Shown: positions 3,831-64,000 of the stretch, piece by piece
Layout of the letters: the number at the start of each line of letters is the position of its first letter
Position numbering within the stretch: the first letter of the stretch is position 1
From: Bacilli bacterium
GTDB taxonomy: Bacteria > Bacillota_I > Bacilli_A > RFN20 > CAG-826
DNA length: 64,000 nucleotides
NCBI GenBank assembly: GCA_017454295.1
Contig: JAFTDF010000004.1
Location: forward strand, 118,776-182,775
Reading direction: 5' to 3'
Position numbers and translations under genes: made by a program
The notes under the pieces: generated by a model
What the model was told of the DNA's origin: nothing
Seen by the model: the letters and a program-made list of their open reading frames with translations, nothing else
Database searches by the model: none

Positions 3831-4817
3831 ATGAACGAGAACGCTGTCCTCTTCTCCCTCTCGGGAAATCCCGAATTGGCTCAAAACATCGCCGAAAAGC
3901 TCGGCACGAAACTAGCGGATGTTTCCATTCGCCGTTTTCCCTCTGGGGAAACGATCGTTGAGCCGATTAATACCGTGCGTGGTAAACAGGTCTTCATCAT
4001 CCAGCCCACCTGCCCTCCGGTCAACGACAACCTCATGGAAGTTTTGATCTTCGTGGATGCGTTACGTCGCGCCTCCGCCTCGGAAATCAATTTGATTTGC
4101 CCCTACTATGGCTATGCCCGTCAAGACCGCAAGGCAAAACCCCGTCAACCCATCACCGCCGCTTTGGTGGCCCATTTGTTGACCACCGCTGGCGTCGATC
4201 GCGTCGTGACCGTCAACCTTCACGCTTCCCAAATCCAAGGTTTCTTCTCTTGCTTGGTCGACGATTTGACGGCCGTCCCTCTTCTCGGGTCTGCCGTGCT
4301 TGCCCAAAAACCCGACTTAAAGAACACGGTTGTCGTTTCTCCCGACCATGGTGGCGTCAACCGGGCCCGCGACCTAGCCGTGACCTTGGGAAACTGCCCC
4401 ATCGCCATTATCGATAAGCGTCGCAAAGCCTCGCTAGAACCAGAAGTAATGGAAATCATCGGCTCTGTCGCCGGCAAAGATTGCATCATGATCGATGATA
4501 TGATCGATACCGGGCGTTCCGCCTGCGTCGGCGCGAAGGCGTTAAAAGCGGCAGGGGCCAAGTCCGTCTCCATCGCGGCGGTCCACCCCACCTTCTCCGA
4601 TCCTTGTTACGATTATCTTTCCGAAGGCATCTTTGACAATATCGTCGTCACCGACTCGATTCCCTTGCAGCAACGTTTTCTCGACCTCAAAGGATTGCGG
4701 GTCGTCTCCCTGGCTTCGATGCTTGCGGAATGTATCCAACGCATTATCAAAAACGCACCGCTTTCGACGGTTTACGAAGCATACGGAAAACCCGAGAACA
4801 TCAAACGGAAAAAATAA
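3831..4817 (+). CDS. prs: ribose-phosphate pyrophosphokinase (PRPP synthetase)
   Basis: 328 aa; YYGYARQDRK flexible-loop motif and a DTGRS PRPP-binding site. Confidence 0.9.
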   Translation: MNENAVLFSLSGNPELAQNIAEKLGTKLADVSIRRFPSGETIVEPINTVRGKQVFIIQPTCPPVNDNLMEVLIFVDALRRASASEINLICPYYGYARQDRKAKPRQPITAALVAHLLTTAGVDRVVTVNLHASQIQGFFSCLVDDLTAVPLLGSAVLAQKPDLKNTVVVSPDHGGVNRARDLAVTLGNCPIAIIDKRRKASLEPEVMEIIGSVAGKDCIMIDDMIDTGRSACVGAKALKAAGAKSVSIAAVHPTFSDPCYDYLSEGIFDNIVVTDSIPLQQRFLDLKGLRVVSLASMLAECIQRIIKNAPLSTVYEAYGKPENIKRKK

Positions 4818-6604: not shown

Positions 6605-6723
6605 AAAATCTCCTTTTTCAATTTGCCTAATTATACGCCACGCACGTGAATTGTGAATAGTTTCTCATTGTCTTAAAAGCGTGCAAAATCCGCATGTTTA
6701 CGGCTCTTTCTTCGCACCTAAGA

Positions 6724-6758
6724 AACCAAAAAATCACCCCCCTACGGAGAAGGTGATT
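6724..6758. terminator. intrinsic terminator (AATCACC ... GGTGATT with flanking T-runs on both strands) ending the 9206..6790 operon
   Basis: 7-bp GC-containing stem. TTTTTTGGTTT on the minus strand and TTTGTTTTTTG on the plus strand. Confidence 0.6.
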
Positions 6759-6789
6759 CTTTGTTTTTTGTTGGGTTTTTGCGGCTTTT

Positions 6790-8652
6790 TTAAATAGAAC
6801 CATTCATCAAGTCGATCACCAAGAAGACAACGCTGGCAATGAGCAGTAAGACGTTGGGGATGGTGAGCAAGGCACGATAAGCGTTCTTCTTTTGACGTAA
6901 GAGTAACGTAGCGAGTAAGCACATTGCGCCCGCCCCAAGGAAGCCATAGCAATAAGGACCGGTGGCCTCCAAAATTTTCGGGAAGAGGAAGAAGGCCAAT
7001 GCATAAAGGCTGAATAGAATCCCGCTGATGCCAAGGATCTTGGCCCAGACATCCGACCCGCGTTCATCAAAGCCGAAACGACGATGGATGGCAAATAGGG
7101 CGACCGTCACACCGATCACCGGAACGGCAATATAAGATAGACGGTTCACCATGGGCGAGATGTTGGCGGCTTGGGCAACCAAAGGTACCACCACAGCTAA
7201 GACAAGGGGAACGATAATCGCCAAACTCACATAAAGGAGCATCGACATAAAGTCCCAACTCTTGATCACGGTGTTCTTCTCTCGTTTTCCCCAAGGCAAA
7301 CGGATGTTTTCTTGGGTTTCGCCATAAAGATAATGCAGTTCGTCGCAGCCCGACTTCAAAGCAACGCGATGGGCGTGGGGCGAACGGAGCAAATCTTTCT
7401 TAAGCCCACGGAAGGTTTTCTGCTGGGAAGGGGCGAGGTTTTGGGAGAGCTCGTAAAGGGCAGGACCCATCTTTTCGAAATCGCCCCGCTTCTTCTTGCA
7501 ATGGACCAACAGGCTCATCAAGGAGAACTGGCGTTCTTCATCGAGTTGTTGATTCACGGCTTCGCCAAAAACGATCACTATGGTCTCGAAATCGGTTTTC
7601 TTCAATTCCGCGACCAACAATTCGAAATAGGCTTCTTGGAGTTCGGGATCGGCAAGCAAGCGGGCCGTTAAACCTACCGCATATTCTTCATGGAGCAGCA
7701 AAGCCTCGTCTTGGCTTTTGGCGAATTCATAGAAGTCGTCAATGTTCTGGCGTTTGCACTTCTCGACGCCATAGGCGTAATGGAACTCTGCTTCGCTAGG
7801 CAGGGTAAATGCCGCTAGGGCGATGCAGTCCTCGGGAATGTAGTCGCGGTGTTCGTAATAGAAGAGGGCTTGCTCGTAATCGTCCCCTTCGAACGCGGCT
7901 TTGGAAAGATCGTTAAAAGCTCCGTAAACGATTTCCAGGAATTCGTTGCGGCGAGCTTCGGTCCGATTCGAACGCTCCATGCCCGGCTTGGATAGTTCCC
8001 CATCCACCGCAAGGGCGGCAAGGAAATCTTCTTGGGAGAGGATTTGGCCCCGGAATCTGAGCGCGGCATTGGCATAGCCAAAACCAACGAGTTTATCCAA
8101 ATGGTATTGTTTGCTGGCTTCCCCATCGATTTGGGTGCCGAGGTTCTCGGCGATTTGCCGATAAGCATCCATTTTCGCTTCTTCTAAAGCCGGCTGCTCG
8201 GCGCGCAAATTGGCTTCGCCCATGTGGGCATAAACGCAAGCCTTCTCATGACCGAGGATCTCGCGGATAAGCTTTTGGGATTTCAGGGGGATGCCATAAT
8301 CCAAAGGTAGGAATTTGGAATTCAAGGCGTCGATGCCCACAAGCGCTTGCTCGTATTTGCCTTGTTCATCCAACGATTTGACATATTGGAGAACTTCTTC
8401 GAGGTAGGTGGCATAGTAGGCGATGTCTTCTTTGCCTTTGGCGATGTTTTCGATGGGCTTAACGAAAGAGGCCATTTTCTTTTTGGCTTCGAGCAAAGCG
8501 TTGAGATTATCGTGCAAGGCCAATAGGCGTTGTTCGGTCTTTTCCAAATGAATGGAGGCGACGGATTTGATGGCGGAGGCTTCGGCGACGGCTTGGTCGA
8601 GGTCGGCGAGTTGACGCTCAACGAAAGAGGGATTGACTTCGAAATCAGGCAT
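6790..8652 (-). CDS. large hypothetical protein: about 470-aa cytoplasmic alpha-helical domain plus a C-terminal block of 4-5 TM helices
   Basis: The ATG at 8652 is preceded by AGGAGGAACCGCAAA and overlaps the upstream gene stop (coupling). No catalytic motif was recognised. Confidence 0.55.
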   Translation of the reverse strand: MPDFEVNPSFVERQLADLDQAVAEASAIKSVASIHLEKTEQRLLALHDNLNALLEAKKKMASFVKPIENIAKGKEDIAYYATYLEEVLQYVKSLDEQGKYEQALVGIDALNSKFLPLDYGIPLKSQKLIREILGHEKACVYAHMGEANLRAEQPALEEAKMDAYRQIAENLGTQIDGEASKQYHLDKLVGFGYANAALRFRGQILSQEDFLAALAVDGELSKPGMERSNRTEARRNEFLEIVYGAFNDLSKAAFEGDDYEQALFYYEHRDYIPEDCIALAAFTLPSEAEFHYAYGVEKCKRQNIDDFYEFAKSQDEALLLHEEYAVGLTARLLADPELQEAYFELLVAELKKTDFETIVIVFGEAVNQQLDEERQFSLMSLLVHCKKKRGDFEKMGPALYELSQNLAPSQQKTFRGLKKDLLRSPHAHRVALKSGCDELHYLYGETQENIRLPWGKREKNTVIKSWDFMSMLLYVSLAIIVPLVLAVVVPLVAQAANISPMVNRLSYIAVPVIGVTVALFAIHRRFGFDERGSDVWAKILGISGILFSLYALAFFLFPKILEATGPYCYGFLGAGAMCLLATLLLRQKKNAYRALLTIPNVLLLIASVVFLVIDLMNGSI

Positions 8653-8926: not shown

Positions 8927-9206
8927 CGGGATCTCCTTTCAAACCATAAGCTTGATAGGACGCCAAAATGCTTTCGCAGGCTTTTTGGTCGGCCTCACGG
9001 ATCACTTTTTCGGCGGCGTCTTTTACCCGCTTTTCGGTTTTCTCGATCAACGCATTGACTTGGGCAAGCGTGTCTTCCTGACTCCGCTGATACTCACCAA
9101 GGCCTTCGTCAAATGCCATATCGACGTTTTCATTCAGCGCTTCAATCGCAGCCGCATTGGAAGCGGCCTTCCGCTGGAGCGCCGAAATTTTGGGATTCTT
9201 AGGCAT
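8913..9206 (-). CDS. small predicted coiled-coil protein (97 aa)
   Basis: Strong GAGGGAGG ribosome-binding site 6 nt before the ATG. First gene of the trio. Confidence 0.5.
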   Translation of the reverse strand: MPKNPKISALQRKAASNAAAIEALNENVDMAFDEGLGEYQRSQEDTLAQVNALIEKTEKRVKDAAEKVIREADQKACESILASYQAYGLKGDPDDCE

Positions 9207-59444: not shown

Positions 59445-60599
59445 TCAAATCCTCTTAATAAAACGTTCCAATCTCTCGATGCCATCAGCCAATTCTTCGA
59501 CGGCCGAAGCATAGGAGACGCGGATAAAGCCTTCCCCGCTATCGCCAAAGGCGTTCCCGGGGACGACAATCAGTTTTTCTTGTTCCAAAAGCTCTAAGCA
59601 GAATTGCTCGGAAGACTTTCCGTAATTCCCGATATAAGGGAAAAGATAGAAAGCGCCTTTGGGTTCAAAGCAAGGAATCCCGATGCGTTTAAATTCGCCT
59701 AGCATGAATTTACGGCGATCGTCATAATCCTCGCGCATCGCCACCACATCATTTTGGCCGTGGCGTAATGCCTCCAAGGCCGCATATTGGGCAGGGGTGG
59801 GCGCGCACATGATGACGTATTGATGGATTTTGATCATTTGTTTCATGATCGAAGCCGGTGCCAAAGTGTATCCCAAACGCCAACCAGTCATGGAAAAGGC
59901 CTTGGAAAAACCGTTGACGTAGATACACCGCTCTTTCATGCCCGGGAAAGAGGCGATCGAAACATGATTGCTTCCATAGGTAAGCTCGGAATAGATCTCG
60001 TCGGTAATCACCAAAAGGTCATGCTCGATGAGAATGGGCACGATCGCTTCAAGATCGGCTTTCTCCATAATGGCCCCAGTAGGGTTATTGGGGTAATTCA
60101 AAATGATGGCTTTGGTTTTCGGGGTGATGGCGGCTTCAAGTTCGGCGGGGGTTAAACGGAATTCGTTTTTCGCTTGTAAAGGGATCGTCTTCACAATCCC
60201 ACCCACCATGGTGACTTCGGCCGGATAGGCGACATAGGAAGGCTGGGGAATAATCACTTCGTCTCCCGGCTCGATGCAAGCCCGAATCGCCAAATCGATG
60301 GCTTCGGAGCCGCCCACGGTTACCAGTACTTCGTTATCTTCGTAGTCCAAACCGTATTTCTTTTTGACCCAGGAACGAATTTCCTGGCGTAAGGCAGGCA
60401 TGCCTTGGTTGGATGTATAGAACGTATTCCCTTCGATCAAAGAACGGCTCCCCGCTTCGGTAATGTGGGCAGGGGTATCGTAATCAGGTTCCCCCACTCC
60501 TAAGGAAATGCATCCTTCGATCGTGGAAGCGAGGTCGAAGAACTTGCGGATGCCGGAAGGCTTAATGCCACGGATAACCTTGCTGGTGAAGTCTTTCAT
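59445..60599 (-). CDS. class I/II PLP-dependent aminotransferase (aspartate-aminotransferase-like)
   Basis: PLP-lysine motif NGFSKAFSMTGWRLGY. Start set at MKDFTSKVIRGIKPSGIR. The upstream track extension covers a TATAAT box. Confidence 0.75.
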   Translation of the reverse strand: MKDFTSKVIRGIKPSGIRKFFDLASTIEGCISLGVGEPDYDTPAHITEAGSRSLIEGNTFYTSNQGMPALRQEIRSWVKKKYGLDYEDNEVLVTVGGSEAIDLAIRACIEPGDEVIIPQPSYVAYPAEVTMVGGIVKTIPLQAKNEFRLTPAELEAAITPKTKAIILNYPNNPTGAIMEKADLEAIVPILIEHDLLVITDEIYSELTYGSNHVSIASFPGMKERCIYVNGFSKAFSMTGWRLGYTLAPASIMKQMIKIHQYVIMCAPTPAQYAALEALRHGQNDVVAMREDYDDRRKFMLGEFKRIGIPCFEPKGAFYLFPYIGNYGKSSEQFCLELLEQEKLIVVPGNAFGDSGEGFIRVSYASAVEELADGIERLERFIKRI

Positions 60600-60687
60600 A
60601 AGTGTAACGTTGAGATTATATCTCATTCCGAAGATAACAAGTGGAAATCTTCAATTTGGGGAGAATGCGCTTCATTGGTCTTTAAAG

Positions 60688-60740
60688 TTTTATACTTTGT
60701 ATAAAAACATTTTTGCCACGGTGAGGCAAAAATCTTTTGA
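60688..60740 (+). repeat. repeat unit copy 1: palindrome TTTTATAC-ttt-GTATAAAA plus the TTTTGCC...GGCAAAA dyad; a decayed copy of a yhcG internal segment
   Basis: About 80% identical at DNA level to 61460..61515 inside yhcG. Confidence 0.6.
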
Positions 60741-60796
60741 GTGGAGTCCATGAGGCGTTAAATGGCGGTGTCTAATGAGCCGCCGTTGATAAGGAC

Positions 60797-60818
60797 GTCC
60801 CCTAAAGGGGAGATTTTT
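60797..60818 (+). terminator. orphan plus-strand intrinsic terminator (TCCCCT-aa-AGGGGA then GATTTTTT)
   Basis: Seen directly. No intact plus-strand gene lies upstream. Confidence 0.4.
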
Positions 60819-60947
60819 TACGCAGTGAGTAAAATATCTTCCACGCTTTGGCGTTTGCCAACAAACACTTTGATTGAATGACGGCTCCACAAGCCAAAGC
60901 AAAAAGTGAATCCATGGATGTTCTTTCAAAACTTATCAATAATTTTT

Positions 60948-61000
60948 CTTTATACATAGTATAAAGAGATATTCTCATCACTGACGAGAAAATCTTTCTT
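60948..61000 (+). repeat. repeat unit copy 2 (CTTTATAC-ata-GTATAAAG plus the TTCTCATCA...ACGAGAA dyad)
   Basis: Same architecture as copies 1, 3 and 4. Confidence 0.55.
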
Positions 61001-61060
61001 CACATGAGTTCTTAACGTGCATTTTGTTTTTGTGGTTCGTAGTCCAAGATAATGCGTTTT

Positions 61061-61115
61061 CTTTATACTAGGTATAAAGAGATTGTGTCCTCGGTGAGGC
61101 AACAATCTTTTCTTT
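61061..61115 (+). repeat. repeat unit copy 3 (CTTTATAC-tag-GTATAAAG plus a degenerate dyad)
   Basis: Same architecture; lies 113 nt after copy 2. Confidence 0.55.
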
Positions 61116-61177
61116 GAATCTTTTTTCTCAAAACGCAGTCCTTCCTACGTATAAGAATGTAGGAGCAGTTCTACGCA

Positions 61178-62254
61178 ATGAAAGAACTAACGAATCTAAA
61201 TTTCGACATCAAAGAAACGGATCAAATACTGGATGACGTAAGCGCGATCATCCAGCAAAGCCAAACGATTGCTTATCGGGCAATCGATTATGTGCTGCTG
61301 CGCCGCAACTGGCTAATCGGCAAGCGCATCCATGAAGAAGAACTAAAAGAAACGAGAAAAGAAAACTATGGATTGAAAATTATCAAGACTCTTTCCGAGG
61401 AGTTAACCATAAGATTTGGAAAAGGGTTCAACCAGTTTTCGCTCTATCGATGTTTGAAATTTTATACCTTGTATAAAAACATTTTCACTACACTGTCGCA
61501 AAAATCTTTATTGAGCTGGAGTCATTATGCTTTGCTGATAAAAATAAGCGATTCTCAAGCCCGGGAATGGTACGAGAAACAGGCTCTGGAATCCTCCTGG
61601 AGCGTCCGTACCCTCCAACGGAACATCGAAACCCAATACTACTATCGCATCCTTGCTTCGCAAAACAAACAGCCGATCATCCAAGAAATGCAGCAAAAGA
61701 CCTCCGACCCACGCCTTAACAAGCTCGAACACATCAAGAATCCCGTTATCTTAGAATTCCTCGGTCTATCCCCAAACGATTCTTTGTTGGAAAGCACTTT
61801 GGAATCCGCGATCATCTCCAATCTGCGGAAAATGCTCTTGGAGCTTGGCAAAGGATATGCCTTTGTCGGGCGGCAATACCGAATCCAAACAGAAGCGAGG
61901 GATTACTATGTCGACCTTGTCTTTTACAACTATATTCTCAAATGCTTTGTACTCATCGATTTGAAAGTGGGAAGAATTGAGCATCAAGATGTGGGCCAGA
62001 TGGATATGTATGTCCGAATGTTCGATAAACTCATTAAATCCGAAAGCGACAATCCCACATTAGGCATCGTCCTTTGCTCCGAGACCGATGCCGATATCGC
62101 CCGTTATTCGATTCTGGAAGGCAACGAGCGATTATTTGCCAGCAAATACAAACTCTACTTACCAAATGAAGGGACGTTAAAAGCGGAAATCGAATATCAA
62201 AAAGAACTCTACTACCTCACGCACGAAGATGAACAAACCGAGGAAACGAAATGA
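61178..62254 (+). CDS. yhcG: YhcG-family (DUF1016) PD-(D/E)xK nuclease-like protein
   Basis: 358 aa. The C-terminal restriction-endonuclease-like core is YYVDLVFYNYILKCFVLIDLKVGRIEHQDVGQMDMYV. Repeat copy 4 lies at 61460..61515 inside the N-terminal domain. Confidence 0.7.
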   Translation: MKELTNLNFDIKETDQILDDVSAIIQQSQTIAYRAIDYVLLRRNWLIGKRIHEEELKETRKENYGLKIIKTLSEELTIRFGKGFNQFSLYRCLKFYTLYKNIFTTLSQKSLLSWSHYALLIKISDSQAREWYEKQALESSWSVRTLQRNIETQYYYRILASQNKQPIIQEMQQKTSDPRLNKLEHIKNPVILEFLGLSPNDSLLESTLESAIISNLRKMLLELGKGYAFVGRQYRIQTEARDYYVDLVFYNYILKCFVLIDLKVGRIEHQDVGQMDMYVRMFDKLIKSESDNPTLGIVLCSETDADIARYSILEGNERLFASKYKLYLPNEGTLKAEIEYQKELYYLTHEDEQTEETK

Positions 62255-62285: not shown

Positions 62286-62312
62286 CAAAAAAGAAAACCC
62301 GGCAACGCCGGG
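62286..62312 (-). terminator. intrinsic terminator after the DUF308-like gene (CCCGGC-gtt-GCCGGG then TTTTCTTTTTTG on the minus strand)
   Basis: Seen directly. Confidence 0.55.
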
Positions 62313-62333
62313 AATCTTTCGAAATCGAGTAAC

Positions 62334-63700: not shown

Positions 63701-64000
63701 TTATCCGTAGACCTTAATTCCGTCCTTTAATACCTCACGAAGCAAATCTGGATTTCCGGCCAATGCCTCGACCCGCACCAAATCTATTTTTTTATGAAGA
63801 ACGTTGCGAATTCTTTCCGCCAAGCCGGCTACGCGAATGCCCGTCAAAGAAGTGCACAGACATAAATCTACATCACTTTCTGCGGTCGCGTATCCTTTGG
63901 CGTAGCTCCCAAACAAATAACAAAACTCTACTTCGTCGGGATACTCGGATTTGAACAAGGCGGCCAACTCTTGTTGAATGCGTTCGGGACTTAGAACGCC
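63701..64000 (-). CDS. MntA-type (Pol-beta-like) nucleotidyltransferase; N-terminus beyond the window
   Basis: CYLFGSYAKGYATAESDVDLCL matches the minimal nucleotidyltransferase GS-x9-13-D-x-D motif. The frame stays open to the window edge. Confidence 0.6.
   Translation of the reverse strand, partial: GVLSPERIQQELAALFKSEYPDEVEFCYLFGSYAKGYATAESDVDLCLCTSLTGIRVAGLAERIRNVLHKKIDLVRVEALAGNPDLLREVLKDGIKVYG

Follow-up and report, generated by a model that had tools for sequence, protein, structure and literature searches.

A palindromic DNA module of DUF1016 (yhcG-family) nuclease genes and its copies upstream of the gene in a Bacilli bacterium

What are short palindromic repeats doing both upstream of a gene and inside its coding sequence (CDS)? 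The question is raised by a 64,000-nucleotide stretch of contig JAFTDF010000004.1 from a Bacilli bacterium (assembly GCA_017454295.1; hereafter the window), in which a yhcG-family gene of the DUF1016 family is preceded by several units resembling a segment of the gene itself. An earlier note, made from the sequence alone, described four such units and took the three intergenic ones for decayed copies of a segment that is intact in the gene, left either by partial duplications or by a small mobile palindromic element that the CDS had also captured. Our analysis identifies the units, with good support, as copies of a palindromic DNA module that is specific to DUF1016 genes. The yhcG-family gene (61178-62254, + strand) encodes 358 amino acids, with a DUF1016_N domain (PF17761, E = 4e-37) and a YhcG_C PD-(D/E)XK nuclease domain (PF06250, E = 7e-52), and its product matches the PADLOC candidate defence gene PDC-S02 with an E value of 6e-127.

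We searched the window for the pattern TTATAC-N3-GTATAA and found it at 60690, 60950, 61063 and 61462, always on the + strand; the rest of the 64 kb has no match. By chance 0.03 matches are expected, and four sites were reached in none of 100 shuffles. A repeat search returned one family of four 54-nt copies with 65-76% identity to the reference copy 2, spaced 260, 113 and 399 nt apart, so that the family of four described earlier is real. Each unit consists of hairpin 1 (TTTATAC-N3-GTATAAA), hairpin 2 (a 25-nt palindrome, ATTKT-N15-AMAAT) and a CTTT tail. The earlier note had seen a second short dyad here. It is indeed present and followed by CTTT, but it is larger than was noted and begins only 3 nt past hairpin 1. 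With filters off, the covariance model R1, which was made for the unit from alignment A6, recovered from the whole window the four units at 67-75 bits together with a weak fifth at 60810-60840, which had been overlooked, and no others.

Upstream unit 1 (60684-60745; all units are on the + strand) has hairpin 1 at 60688-60706 (TTTTATAC TTT GTATAAAA) and hairpin 2 at 60709-60733 (ATTTTTGCCACGGTGAGGCAAAAAT, 10 of 11 pairs), followed by the tail CTTTTG. It is enclosed by a weak yhcG-like remnant (about 60655-60747, FGENALHWSLKFYTLYKNIFATVRQKSFEW), and the similarity to the CDS copy that had been pointed out amounts to 79% identity across 70 nt, with about 30 codons of weak YhcG similarity at positions 84-114 of the profile hidden Markov model (HMM). 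The fifth unit, X (60798-60839), combines a GC-rich first hairpin, TCCCCTAAAGGGGA, with a palindrome of the hairpin-2 type, ATTTTTTACGCAGTGAGTAAAATAT, at 60813-60837. Unit 2 (60944-61005) carries hairpin 1 at 60948-60966 and hairpin 2 at 60969-60993 (ATATTCTCATCACTGACGAGAAAAT), and its tail is CTTTCTT. Unit 3 (61057-61118), with hairpin 1 at 61061-61079, hairpin 2 at 61082-61106 (ATTGTGTCCTCGGTGAGGCAACAAT) and the tail CTTTTCTTTG, ends 60 nt 5' of the yhcG start codon. In-frame stops had been ascribed to copies 2 and 3; copy 2 does have a TAG, formed at its hairpin-1 loop (ATA), whereas the frame of copy 3 meets a stop just past the unit. The CDS unit (61456-61517) is the yhcG segment for residues ~92-113, to which the other units are related as had been proposed. 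Its hairpin 1 (61460-61478) provides the codons FYTLYKN, and its hairpin 2 (61481-61505, ATTTTCACTACACTGTCGCAAAAAT) the codons IFTTLSQK.

Copies 1 to 3 fold into two neighbouring hairpins as RNA or as DNA (DNA z = -4.2, -3.3 and -6.1), whereas in the CDS copy hairpin 1 alone folds, because hairpin 2 pairs at just 8 of 11 positions. The intergenic copies thus form better hairpins than the CDS copy of the window, the reverse of a segment decayed outside the gene and intact within it. Remnants of yhcG in the spacers were sought by an HMM search of stop-to-stop fragments, which in-frame stops bias, and again with stops masked. With stops masked, the upstream YhcG similarity was limited to the units (HMM positions ~92-113) and about 10 extra codons at copy 1, and the three upstream copies occupied three different reading frames.

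To place the module in the family, a one-genome-per-species scan was made with search patterns from the C-terminal domain, which are blind to the hairpin. It yielded 80 DUF1016 loci of 46-68% amino acid identity from at least eight phyla, among them Firmicutes, Bacteroidota, Spirochaetota, Pseudomonadota, Actinomycetota, Lentisphaerota, Verrucomicrobiota and Mycoplasmatota. The proteins were aligned to the HMM and 25 nt were taken from an invariant Ile codon (I102 in the window protein), a frame that is likewise blind to pairing. Of 84 distinct DUF1016 sequences read in this fixed frame, 77 showed pairing at no fewer than 9 of the 11 positions, among them 30 without any mismatch; the chance for a random 25-mer to reach 9 of 11 is about 1e-4 by our binomial calculation. 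Hairpin 2 measures 25-33 nt, and its arms often reach 13-18 bp. The outer arms (ATTKT/AMAAT, extending to AGATTKT/AMAATCT) and the centre C-R-S-Y-G are conserved; the inner arms vary by lineage yet stay strictly Watson-Crick complementary. The palindrome also occurs at the matching position in more distant tandem paralogues (loci L060, L066, L068 and L081) and in the yhcG genes of several IMG/VR viral contigs, and variants 97% identical to the window gene have an identical CDS hairpin. Tandem in-frame duplicates with a period of 30-48 nt were seen in L042, L049, L074, L075, L085, L086 and Escherichia coli.

These comparisons show hairpin 2 to be ancient and ancestral to the DUF1016 family, at one fixed position. 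Orthologues and paralogues alike conserve the palindrome at the DNA level, a point that the earlier note had left to be checked, and a local pseudogenised duplication with orthologues free of the palindrome does not describe what we found. The 8-bp palindrome on which that note laid stress, hairpin 1, is real and limited to the window clade (the window, L003, L004, P0035 and L126); the family-wide element is hairpin 2. A second palindrome in the CDS, AAACGATTGCTTATCGGGCAATCGATT (61261-61287, with 10-bp arms and a 7-nt loop, near yhcG codons 28-37), is kept in L003 and in the 97% variants and was not seen in other homologues.

The pairing of hairpin 2 was evaluated on alignment A3, where 86% of cells were paired compared to 68% in column shuffles. 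Changes on both sides of a pair were found in 165 cells, against 59 in shuffles, and none of 500 shuffles reached 165. All nine inner pairs showed such both-side changes, and sliding the register lowered the pairing to 28-51%. Position i pairs with position 26-i, which places the partners one base off the codon register. Unrelated codons are thereby tied to each other, and the covariation of the amino acids is exactly the one predicted from this. Residues 2 and 8 combine as F-K (26), V-Q (23) and L-K (9), with no case of V-K, and residues 3 and 7 as H-G (21), D-R (9), Q-G (9) and D-P (7). In the AlphaFold2 model of the window protein, residues 99-113 form a coil between helices 86-98 and 114-120, and the pLDDT (predicted local distance difference test) value falls below 50 at residues 106-108, the lowest confidence in the model. 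The hairpin-2 peptide is thus predicted to be a low-confidence, flexible linker joining two helices, that is, a permissive site. In this permissive linker, the aligned sequences show hairpin-2 nucleotides dictating the amino acids and overriding the protein sequence.

Several features of the alignment bear on whether the pairing acts in DNA or in RNA. G·T-type (G·U) pairs made up about 1-2% of the cells in A3. The mismatches comprised 21 of G·T/T·G versus 20 of A·C/C·A, or 34 versus 53 when the four outer pairs were added, and about half of the hairpins held at least one mismatch. The loop motif C-R-S-Y-G (for example at window 61491-61495) is self-complementary and degenerate (CAGTG, CACTG, CAGCG, etc.). 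Its first base is a synonymous third-codon position, and it was a purine in 70 of 72 cases compared to 53% for like codons elsewhere in the genes, a restriction for which pairing alone does not account. The scarcity of G·T pairs, the lack of an excess of G·T mismatches and the symmetric loop argue for DNA rather than RNA. Together, the pairing features point to a DNA element with two-fold symmetry, whether hairpin, cruciform or palindromic duplex, and would fit a sense-strand RNA helix poorly.

An RNA-level element, in which the flank copies would be terminators or insulators and the intragenic copy an attenuator, an RNase III site or a ribosome pause in the mRNA, or in which the upstream units would be small RNAs mimicking the mRNA segment, is accordingly one of the readings we hold to be quite improbable. 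It would account for the T runs that often follow flank copies (T6 in L004, T7 after unit 3 of L003), for their location after stop codons or between convergent genes (E. coli yhcG/nanQ, the E. coli gltD-nanQ solo hairpin described below, L028, and unit A of L004), and perhaps for the many PDC-S02 models that are N-terminal fragments of 107-133 amino acids. Furthermore, a terminator consensus scan flagged hairpin 2 of copy 1 on both strands and that of copy 2 on the minus strand only, but not that of copy 3. However, G·U pairs are very rare and not in excess over A·C mismatches, the base of the stems is rich in AT, and the CDS copies have weak U tracts for tails. The window units lie between divergent genes with no co-directional transcript upstream, and a terminator role would leave the match to the CDS hairpin unexplained. 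No Rfam family matched: a scan of the region with Rfam 15 at E values up to 10 gave unrelated weak hits only, and L088 (E. coli K-12), L003 and L004 had no match at the gathering threshold. An intrinsic terminator would be expected downstream of a co-directional gene; in the window the upstream neighbour is divergent, and flank copies in E. coli, L004 and L028 do have such a location. Programmed frameshifting was dropped, the sequence A AAA AAC being confined to the window clade.

The intergenic units could be compared with orthologous ones. L003 encodes an 86%-identical YhcG among the same neighbouring genes and possesses all four units as well as the fifth at orthologous places (unit X at 2651-2675), and its unit 2 resembles window unit 3. 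The spacers of the two loci are 23% substituted, with gaps in addition. In the three upstream units, by comparison, the hairpin-1 stems showed 0 changes in 42 positions, the 3-nt linker 0 in 9 and the tail 1 in 15, while the hairpin-1 loops were changed at 4 of 9. Hairpin-2 stems were changed at 21 of 88 positions with the pairing kept through compensatory changes, such as TGCC/GGCA to CGCC/GGCG and CCTC/GAGG to CGAC/GTCG. This is not the decay that had been assumed for the intergenic copies: they are shown to keep their folds, and the sequences of hairpin 1, linker and tail appear conserved. L004 encodes a 72%-identical YhcG in an unrelated low-GC genome and carries two full units and one hairpin-2-only unit upstream, as well as the CDS unit. 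Its hairpins use other bases that still pair (TTTATAGAC/GTCTATAAA and TTTATAGAT/ATCTATAAA). The close homologues P0014, P0023 and P0035 have the CDS hairpin and no upstream copies. In L004 (1-2513), yhcG directly follows a Schlafen/AlbA_2 ATPase-like gene and a TIR_2-domain gene, a defence-island context, and unit A starts 5 nt past the stop codon of the TIR gene.

These comparisons bear on the possibility that the upstream units are relics only, that is, what deletions ending at hairpins have left of earlier yhcG copies, be they tandem paralogues or partial 5' duplications, with every palindrome, including that of the CDS, passively maintained by template-switch correction and free of selection at the nucleic-acid level. 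We regard this as somewhat unlikely. DUF1016 paralogues often stand in tandem with like orientation (L029, L060, L066, L068, L081), copy 1 keeps its YhcG-like codons, all units yield YhcG-like peptides in three different frames, and deletions and truncations do stop at the hairpin. In addition, the mismatch types lack a strand or G·T bias, and a mismatch in about half of the hairpins is what would be expected if correction and mutation proceeded at similar rates. Mere scars would not, however, explain why hairpin-1 stems, linker triplet and tail of the non-coding units changed at only 1 of 66 positions against 23% in adjacent spacers, why the unit boundaries coincide with the module in all copies of two unrelated genomes (window/L003 and L004), why a synonymous loop site is restricted to purines, or why the palindrome persists at one position across phyla and distant paralogues.

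E. coli offers a view of the module within one species. In strain K-12 (NC_000913.3, locus L088, 8125-8240), yhcG contains three tandem in-frame hairpins, which code for IHQTMSGEL, IPQTPSAEF and IWQTLSAKS and fold as DNA with -38.8 kcal/mol (z = -9.6). A fourth, near-identical hairpin (8972-8998) lies 16 nt past the yhcG stop, between the convergent yhcG and nanQ, and the RefSeq K-12 record annotates no repeat, regulatory or binding feature at yhcG. We surveyed 5,426 E. coli genomes. Alleles of the K-12 type have three hairpins and those of the O157 type one, the O157 allele being 78 nt shorter. In one strain, the insertion sequence IS1 lies within the 5' arm of hairpin 3, and in many strains yhcG stops exactly at the 3' end of hairpin 3, with unrelated DNA thereafter. 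Internally deleted copies in L070 and L126 likewise start at the hairpin. The module is thereby shown to be a hotspot for copy-number change and breakpoints. A common truncated allele (L137, 2680-3160; also L175 and L177) continues with a 306-nt open reading frame annotated as 'transposase' (no Pfam match), beyond which a further inverted repeat, TGGCACAGAGC...GCTCTGTGCCA, is found; this allele looks like a segment swap bounded by hairpins. Many PDC-S02 profile models, for their part, are either the N-terminal fragments mentioned above or C-terminal fragments of about 170 amino acids, which suggests that many DUF1016 genes are divided or cut short in the neighbourhood of the hairpin.

E. coli strains that lack yhcG (e.g., FDAARGOS_1264, L176, 2943-3009) have a 67-nt gltD-nanQ spacer with one solo hairpin, GAATTCGCCAGACAGTGTCTGGCGAATT. 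It is identical to the O157 CDS hairpin at 27 of 28 positions and shares its right flank with the downstream hairpin of K-12 and O157, from which two compensatory pairs differ. The 51-nt solo-hairpin sequence was present at 95% identity or more in 2,369 genomes. The solo hairpin is either the scar of a loss or conversion, or a pre-existing terminator that was used as a landing place.

The distribution of the copies was then considered, with regard to the earlier proposal of a mobile element of the REP (repetitive extragenic palindromic) or MITE (miniature inverted-repeat transposable element) kind. Upstream flank copies occur in the window, L003 and L004, with single copies in L032 and L039, and downstream flank copies in Segatella L074 and L076, in L057, L070 and L166, and in E. 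coli K-12 and O157. In the related loci, 625 kb in all, the matches of R1 lay at DUF1016 genes or next to them, and the E. coli genomes held at most six matching places each, both strands counted. A loose unit pattern gave 33 matches in viral contigs, all of them chance AT-rich sequences with 3-9 of 11 pairs. A stricter pattern gave eight in Joint Genome Institute (JGI) metagenomes, of which one, inside a yhcG fragment, was real, in a collection that does not include the window lineage and is thus a weak test of dispersal. The module is therefore shown to be local to yhcG and not dispersed; neither the window, the related loci, the E. coli genomes nor the pattern scans yielded copies away from yhcG.

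A dispersed palindromic element (REP-like, MITE-like or similar to the Rickettsia palindromic elements, RPEs) that landed upstream of and inside yhcG would explain a discrete unit of 55-65 nt with consistent boundaries. It is also the reading to which a Succinivibrio metagenome-assembled genome (L028) lends some support, with intergenic repeats beside unrelated genes and a yhcG CDS that lacks the hairpin. In that genome, two ~70-nt two-hairpin repeats (3990-4090 and 6690-6790), in which a small first hairpin (CTGTA-AACAG) is joined by a perfect ATTTTCCRCACGCGTGTGGAAAAT palindrome with typical yhcG-type arms, adjoin a SpoIIE/Cache phosphatase gene and a solute-binding-protein gene. Nevertheless, such an element is largely refuted and very improbable. 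R1 had no further copy in the 64 kb, and the other scans gave the restricted or chance matches just described. Moreover, the CDS copy occupies one homologous codon position family-wide. Capture by the CDS is likewise at odds with a CDS palindrome that is ancestral and fixed in position in at least eight phyla and in E. coli yhcG.

Comparison with known systems showed that the module is closest to REP-like palindromes, RPEs, attC-like sites and quasi-palindrome hotspots and is a member of none of them. Like the palindromic repeats of the REP/BIME type (REPtrons; BIME, bacterial interspersed mosaic element), it is a short imperfect palindrome in the range of 20-40 nt, may lie between convergent genes, is a target or neighbour of insertion sequences, and combines conserved outer bases with variable but complementary inner ones. 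However, REPs are extragenic, number tens to hundreds of dispersed copies and are linked to REP-associated tyrosine transposases (RAYTs, of the Y1 type), whereas the yhcG module keeps to a single gene family and the DNA directly beside it and is translated in frame. No RAYT was found among the scanned neighbouring genes of the window. MITEs differ in that the module consists of two separate adjacent hairpins, not terminal inverted repeats, and has no dispersed copies in the 64 kb. RPEs share with it an in-frame palindromic DNA whose peptide lies in a permissive region (here the coil 99-113 with low pLDDT). They are 100-150 bp long and occur in many unrelated genes as lineage-specific insertions. 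The yhcG palindrome, by contrast, is 25 nt long, covaries and keeps across phyla to a single homologous position of one family; outside DUF1016 genes and their flanks it was not found. Integron attC sites are similar in their fold-based recognition, conserved outer boxes, variable complementary inner arms and position at cassette boundaries, and the solo hairpin resembles an attC site left behind. The module has no RYYYAAC/GTTRRRY cores, is near-perfect and much shorter, and lies inside a CDS; no integron integrase was found among the neighbouring genes scanned.

Quasi-palindrome template-switch hotspots, which are known from mutagenesis work in E. coli, have arms that are corrected against each other with strict Watson-Crick pairing and arise in arbitrary genes. 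The paired complementary substitutions in the arms of the yhcG palindrome resemble them, although we know of no such hotspot that is conserved at a fixed position of a gene family over deep time. Silent-cassette loci (pilS/pilE, vls) are similar in that the expressed gene is preceded by several partial copies of like orientation, which lack a promoter and combine conserved flanks with a variable core. They differ in that the yhcG units are ~60 nt long, the product is cytoplasmic and most family members have no cassettes; mosaic alleles are not demonstrated, the sole hints being the likeness of L003 unit 2 to window unit 3 and that of the E. coli solo hairpin to the CDS hairpin. A type III toxin-antitoxin system (ToxIN-like) was rejected, since the spacings are not head-to-tail and the gene encodes a PD-(D/E)XK nuclease and not a nuclease of the ToxN/AbiQ type. 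The odd length of 25 nt and the 3-nt centre are unlike the core sites of tyrosine or serine recombinases. A CRISPR (clustered regularly interspaced short palindromic repeat) array, an attC site and LexA, CRP or Fur boxes were considered and dropped. In the full-text literature on DUF1016, YhcG or PDC-S02 together with palindrome, hairpin or inverted repeat, no description of the feature was found.

Taken as a whole, an ancestral DNA-level module that was copied locally, with the upstream units retained as putative cis-acting hairpins, is a reading whose chances we judge to be about even. The module would act at the DNA level by folding into a hairpin or cruciform, and its two arms would co-evolve through hairpin-templated (intrastrand template-switch) correction, through selection or through both. 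Because of this structure, duplications, deletions and insertions may end at the site, and the 55-65-nt module may be copied nearby. The four upstream units of the window would then stem either from the linker module or from tandem copies of yhcG that once existed, and would have been retained through sequence constraint on hairpin-1 stems, linker triplet and tail. Their likeliest role would be that of cis-acting hairpins, either a protein-recognised site or a transcription-blocking insulator or terminator, beside a potentially toxic candidate defence nuclease gene.

Several observations weigh against this account. A functional role of the module is unproven, and the constraint on hairpin-1 stems comes from one species pair, the window and L003. 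The window has no co-directional upstream gene in need of termination. Intergenic copies exist at a minority of loci (~10 of 90), about 10% of the homologues lack the palindrome and appear intact, and the CDS hairpin 2 of the window itself is decayed. The two possible origins of the E. coli solo hairpin leave its meaning ambiguous. Foldseek searches with YhcG gave weak matches to NucS/EndoMS only (E of about 1e-3), which do not imply hairpin specificity. Finally, the palindrome could persist without a function, by template-switch correction in a linker that tolerates any sequence.

We also considered the bolder, and in our view unlikely, possibility that the palindrome is a cis DNA hairpin or cruciform recognised by YhcG nucleases, so that yhcG and its hairpins would form a hairpin-bounded cassette. 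Segments would be gained, lost or exchanged by breakage and repair, and the solo hairpin would be an att-like remnant. In the window, the upstream units would be junction sites or donor cassettes that rewrite the linker by gene conversion. If so, a module of a new kind would be at hand, dependent on hairpins, mobile or diversifying, and in part encoded by the very gene to which it belongs. The YhcG nuclease domain has been related, with low scores, to YraN-like proteins, archaeal Holliday-junction resolvase folds and DUF91 (Kosinski et al. 2005, PMC1189080). From these relationships and the weak Foldseek matches, YhcG may plausibly be a structure-specific nuclease.

The genes around yhcG provide the context, in a window that is a scaffold from a gut or rumen metagenome. 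The repeats occupy a 550-nt divergent intergenic region between yhcG and a class I/II aminotransferase gene (59445-60626, - strand), whose closest named relatives (63-65% identity) come from entries labelled 'MAG: Bacilli bacterium'. Downstream, a GC-rich hairpin (CCCGGC-AAC-GCCGGG, 62298-62319, no strand assigned) lies between the convergent yhcG and a membrane-protein gene and is followed by AATCTTT on the + strand. It is probably a bidirectional terminator, and its kinship with the module is uncertain. The yhcG region adjoining rplM-rpsI varies among relatives, and a clean empty site, sought in window relatives via the aminotransferase, was not found in this rearranged, variable region; the E. 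coli strains provided one in its place. In three of these relatives (L172-L174), the segment from the aminotransferase to rplM-rpsI is variable and oriented unlike that of the window; the variable spot contains an AbiEi_4-family gene in one relative and SDR, Vut_1 and hypothetical genes in another. Towards and past the end of the window (63701-63967) lies a nucleotidyltransferase gene (Polbeta/MNT-like), whose L001 version carries a weak HTH_3 match. The window lineage has this gene and the syntenic L003 does not; it is another small accessory insertion by rpsI-rplM. DUF1016/YhcG genes have been reported to be enriched beside restriction-modification and programmed-inversion loci (PMC9881135).

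The nucleases of the DUF1016/YhcG family are very widespread and uncharacterised, and are listed as a candidate single-gene phage-defence system. For annotators, the present results mean that peptide 'motifs' such as IFHTVCGKS and IVDTVCRQS are shadows of a DNA palindrome, and we take the IVQQLVAQL-type motif of other DUF1016 members to be such a shadow as well. The module is also a clean natural case of a coding sequence that is shaped, across phyla, by nucleic-acid structure. The conserved palindrome offers a lead to what DUF1016 genes do or how they move, and one that is testable in E. coli K-12.

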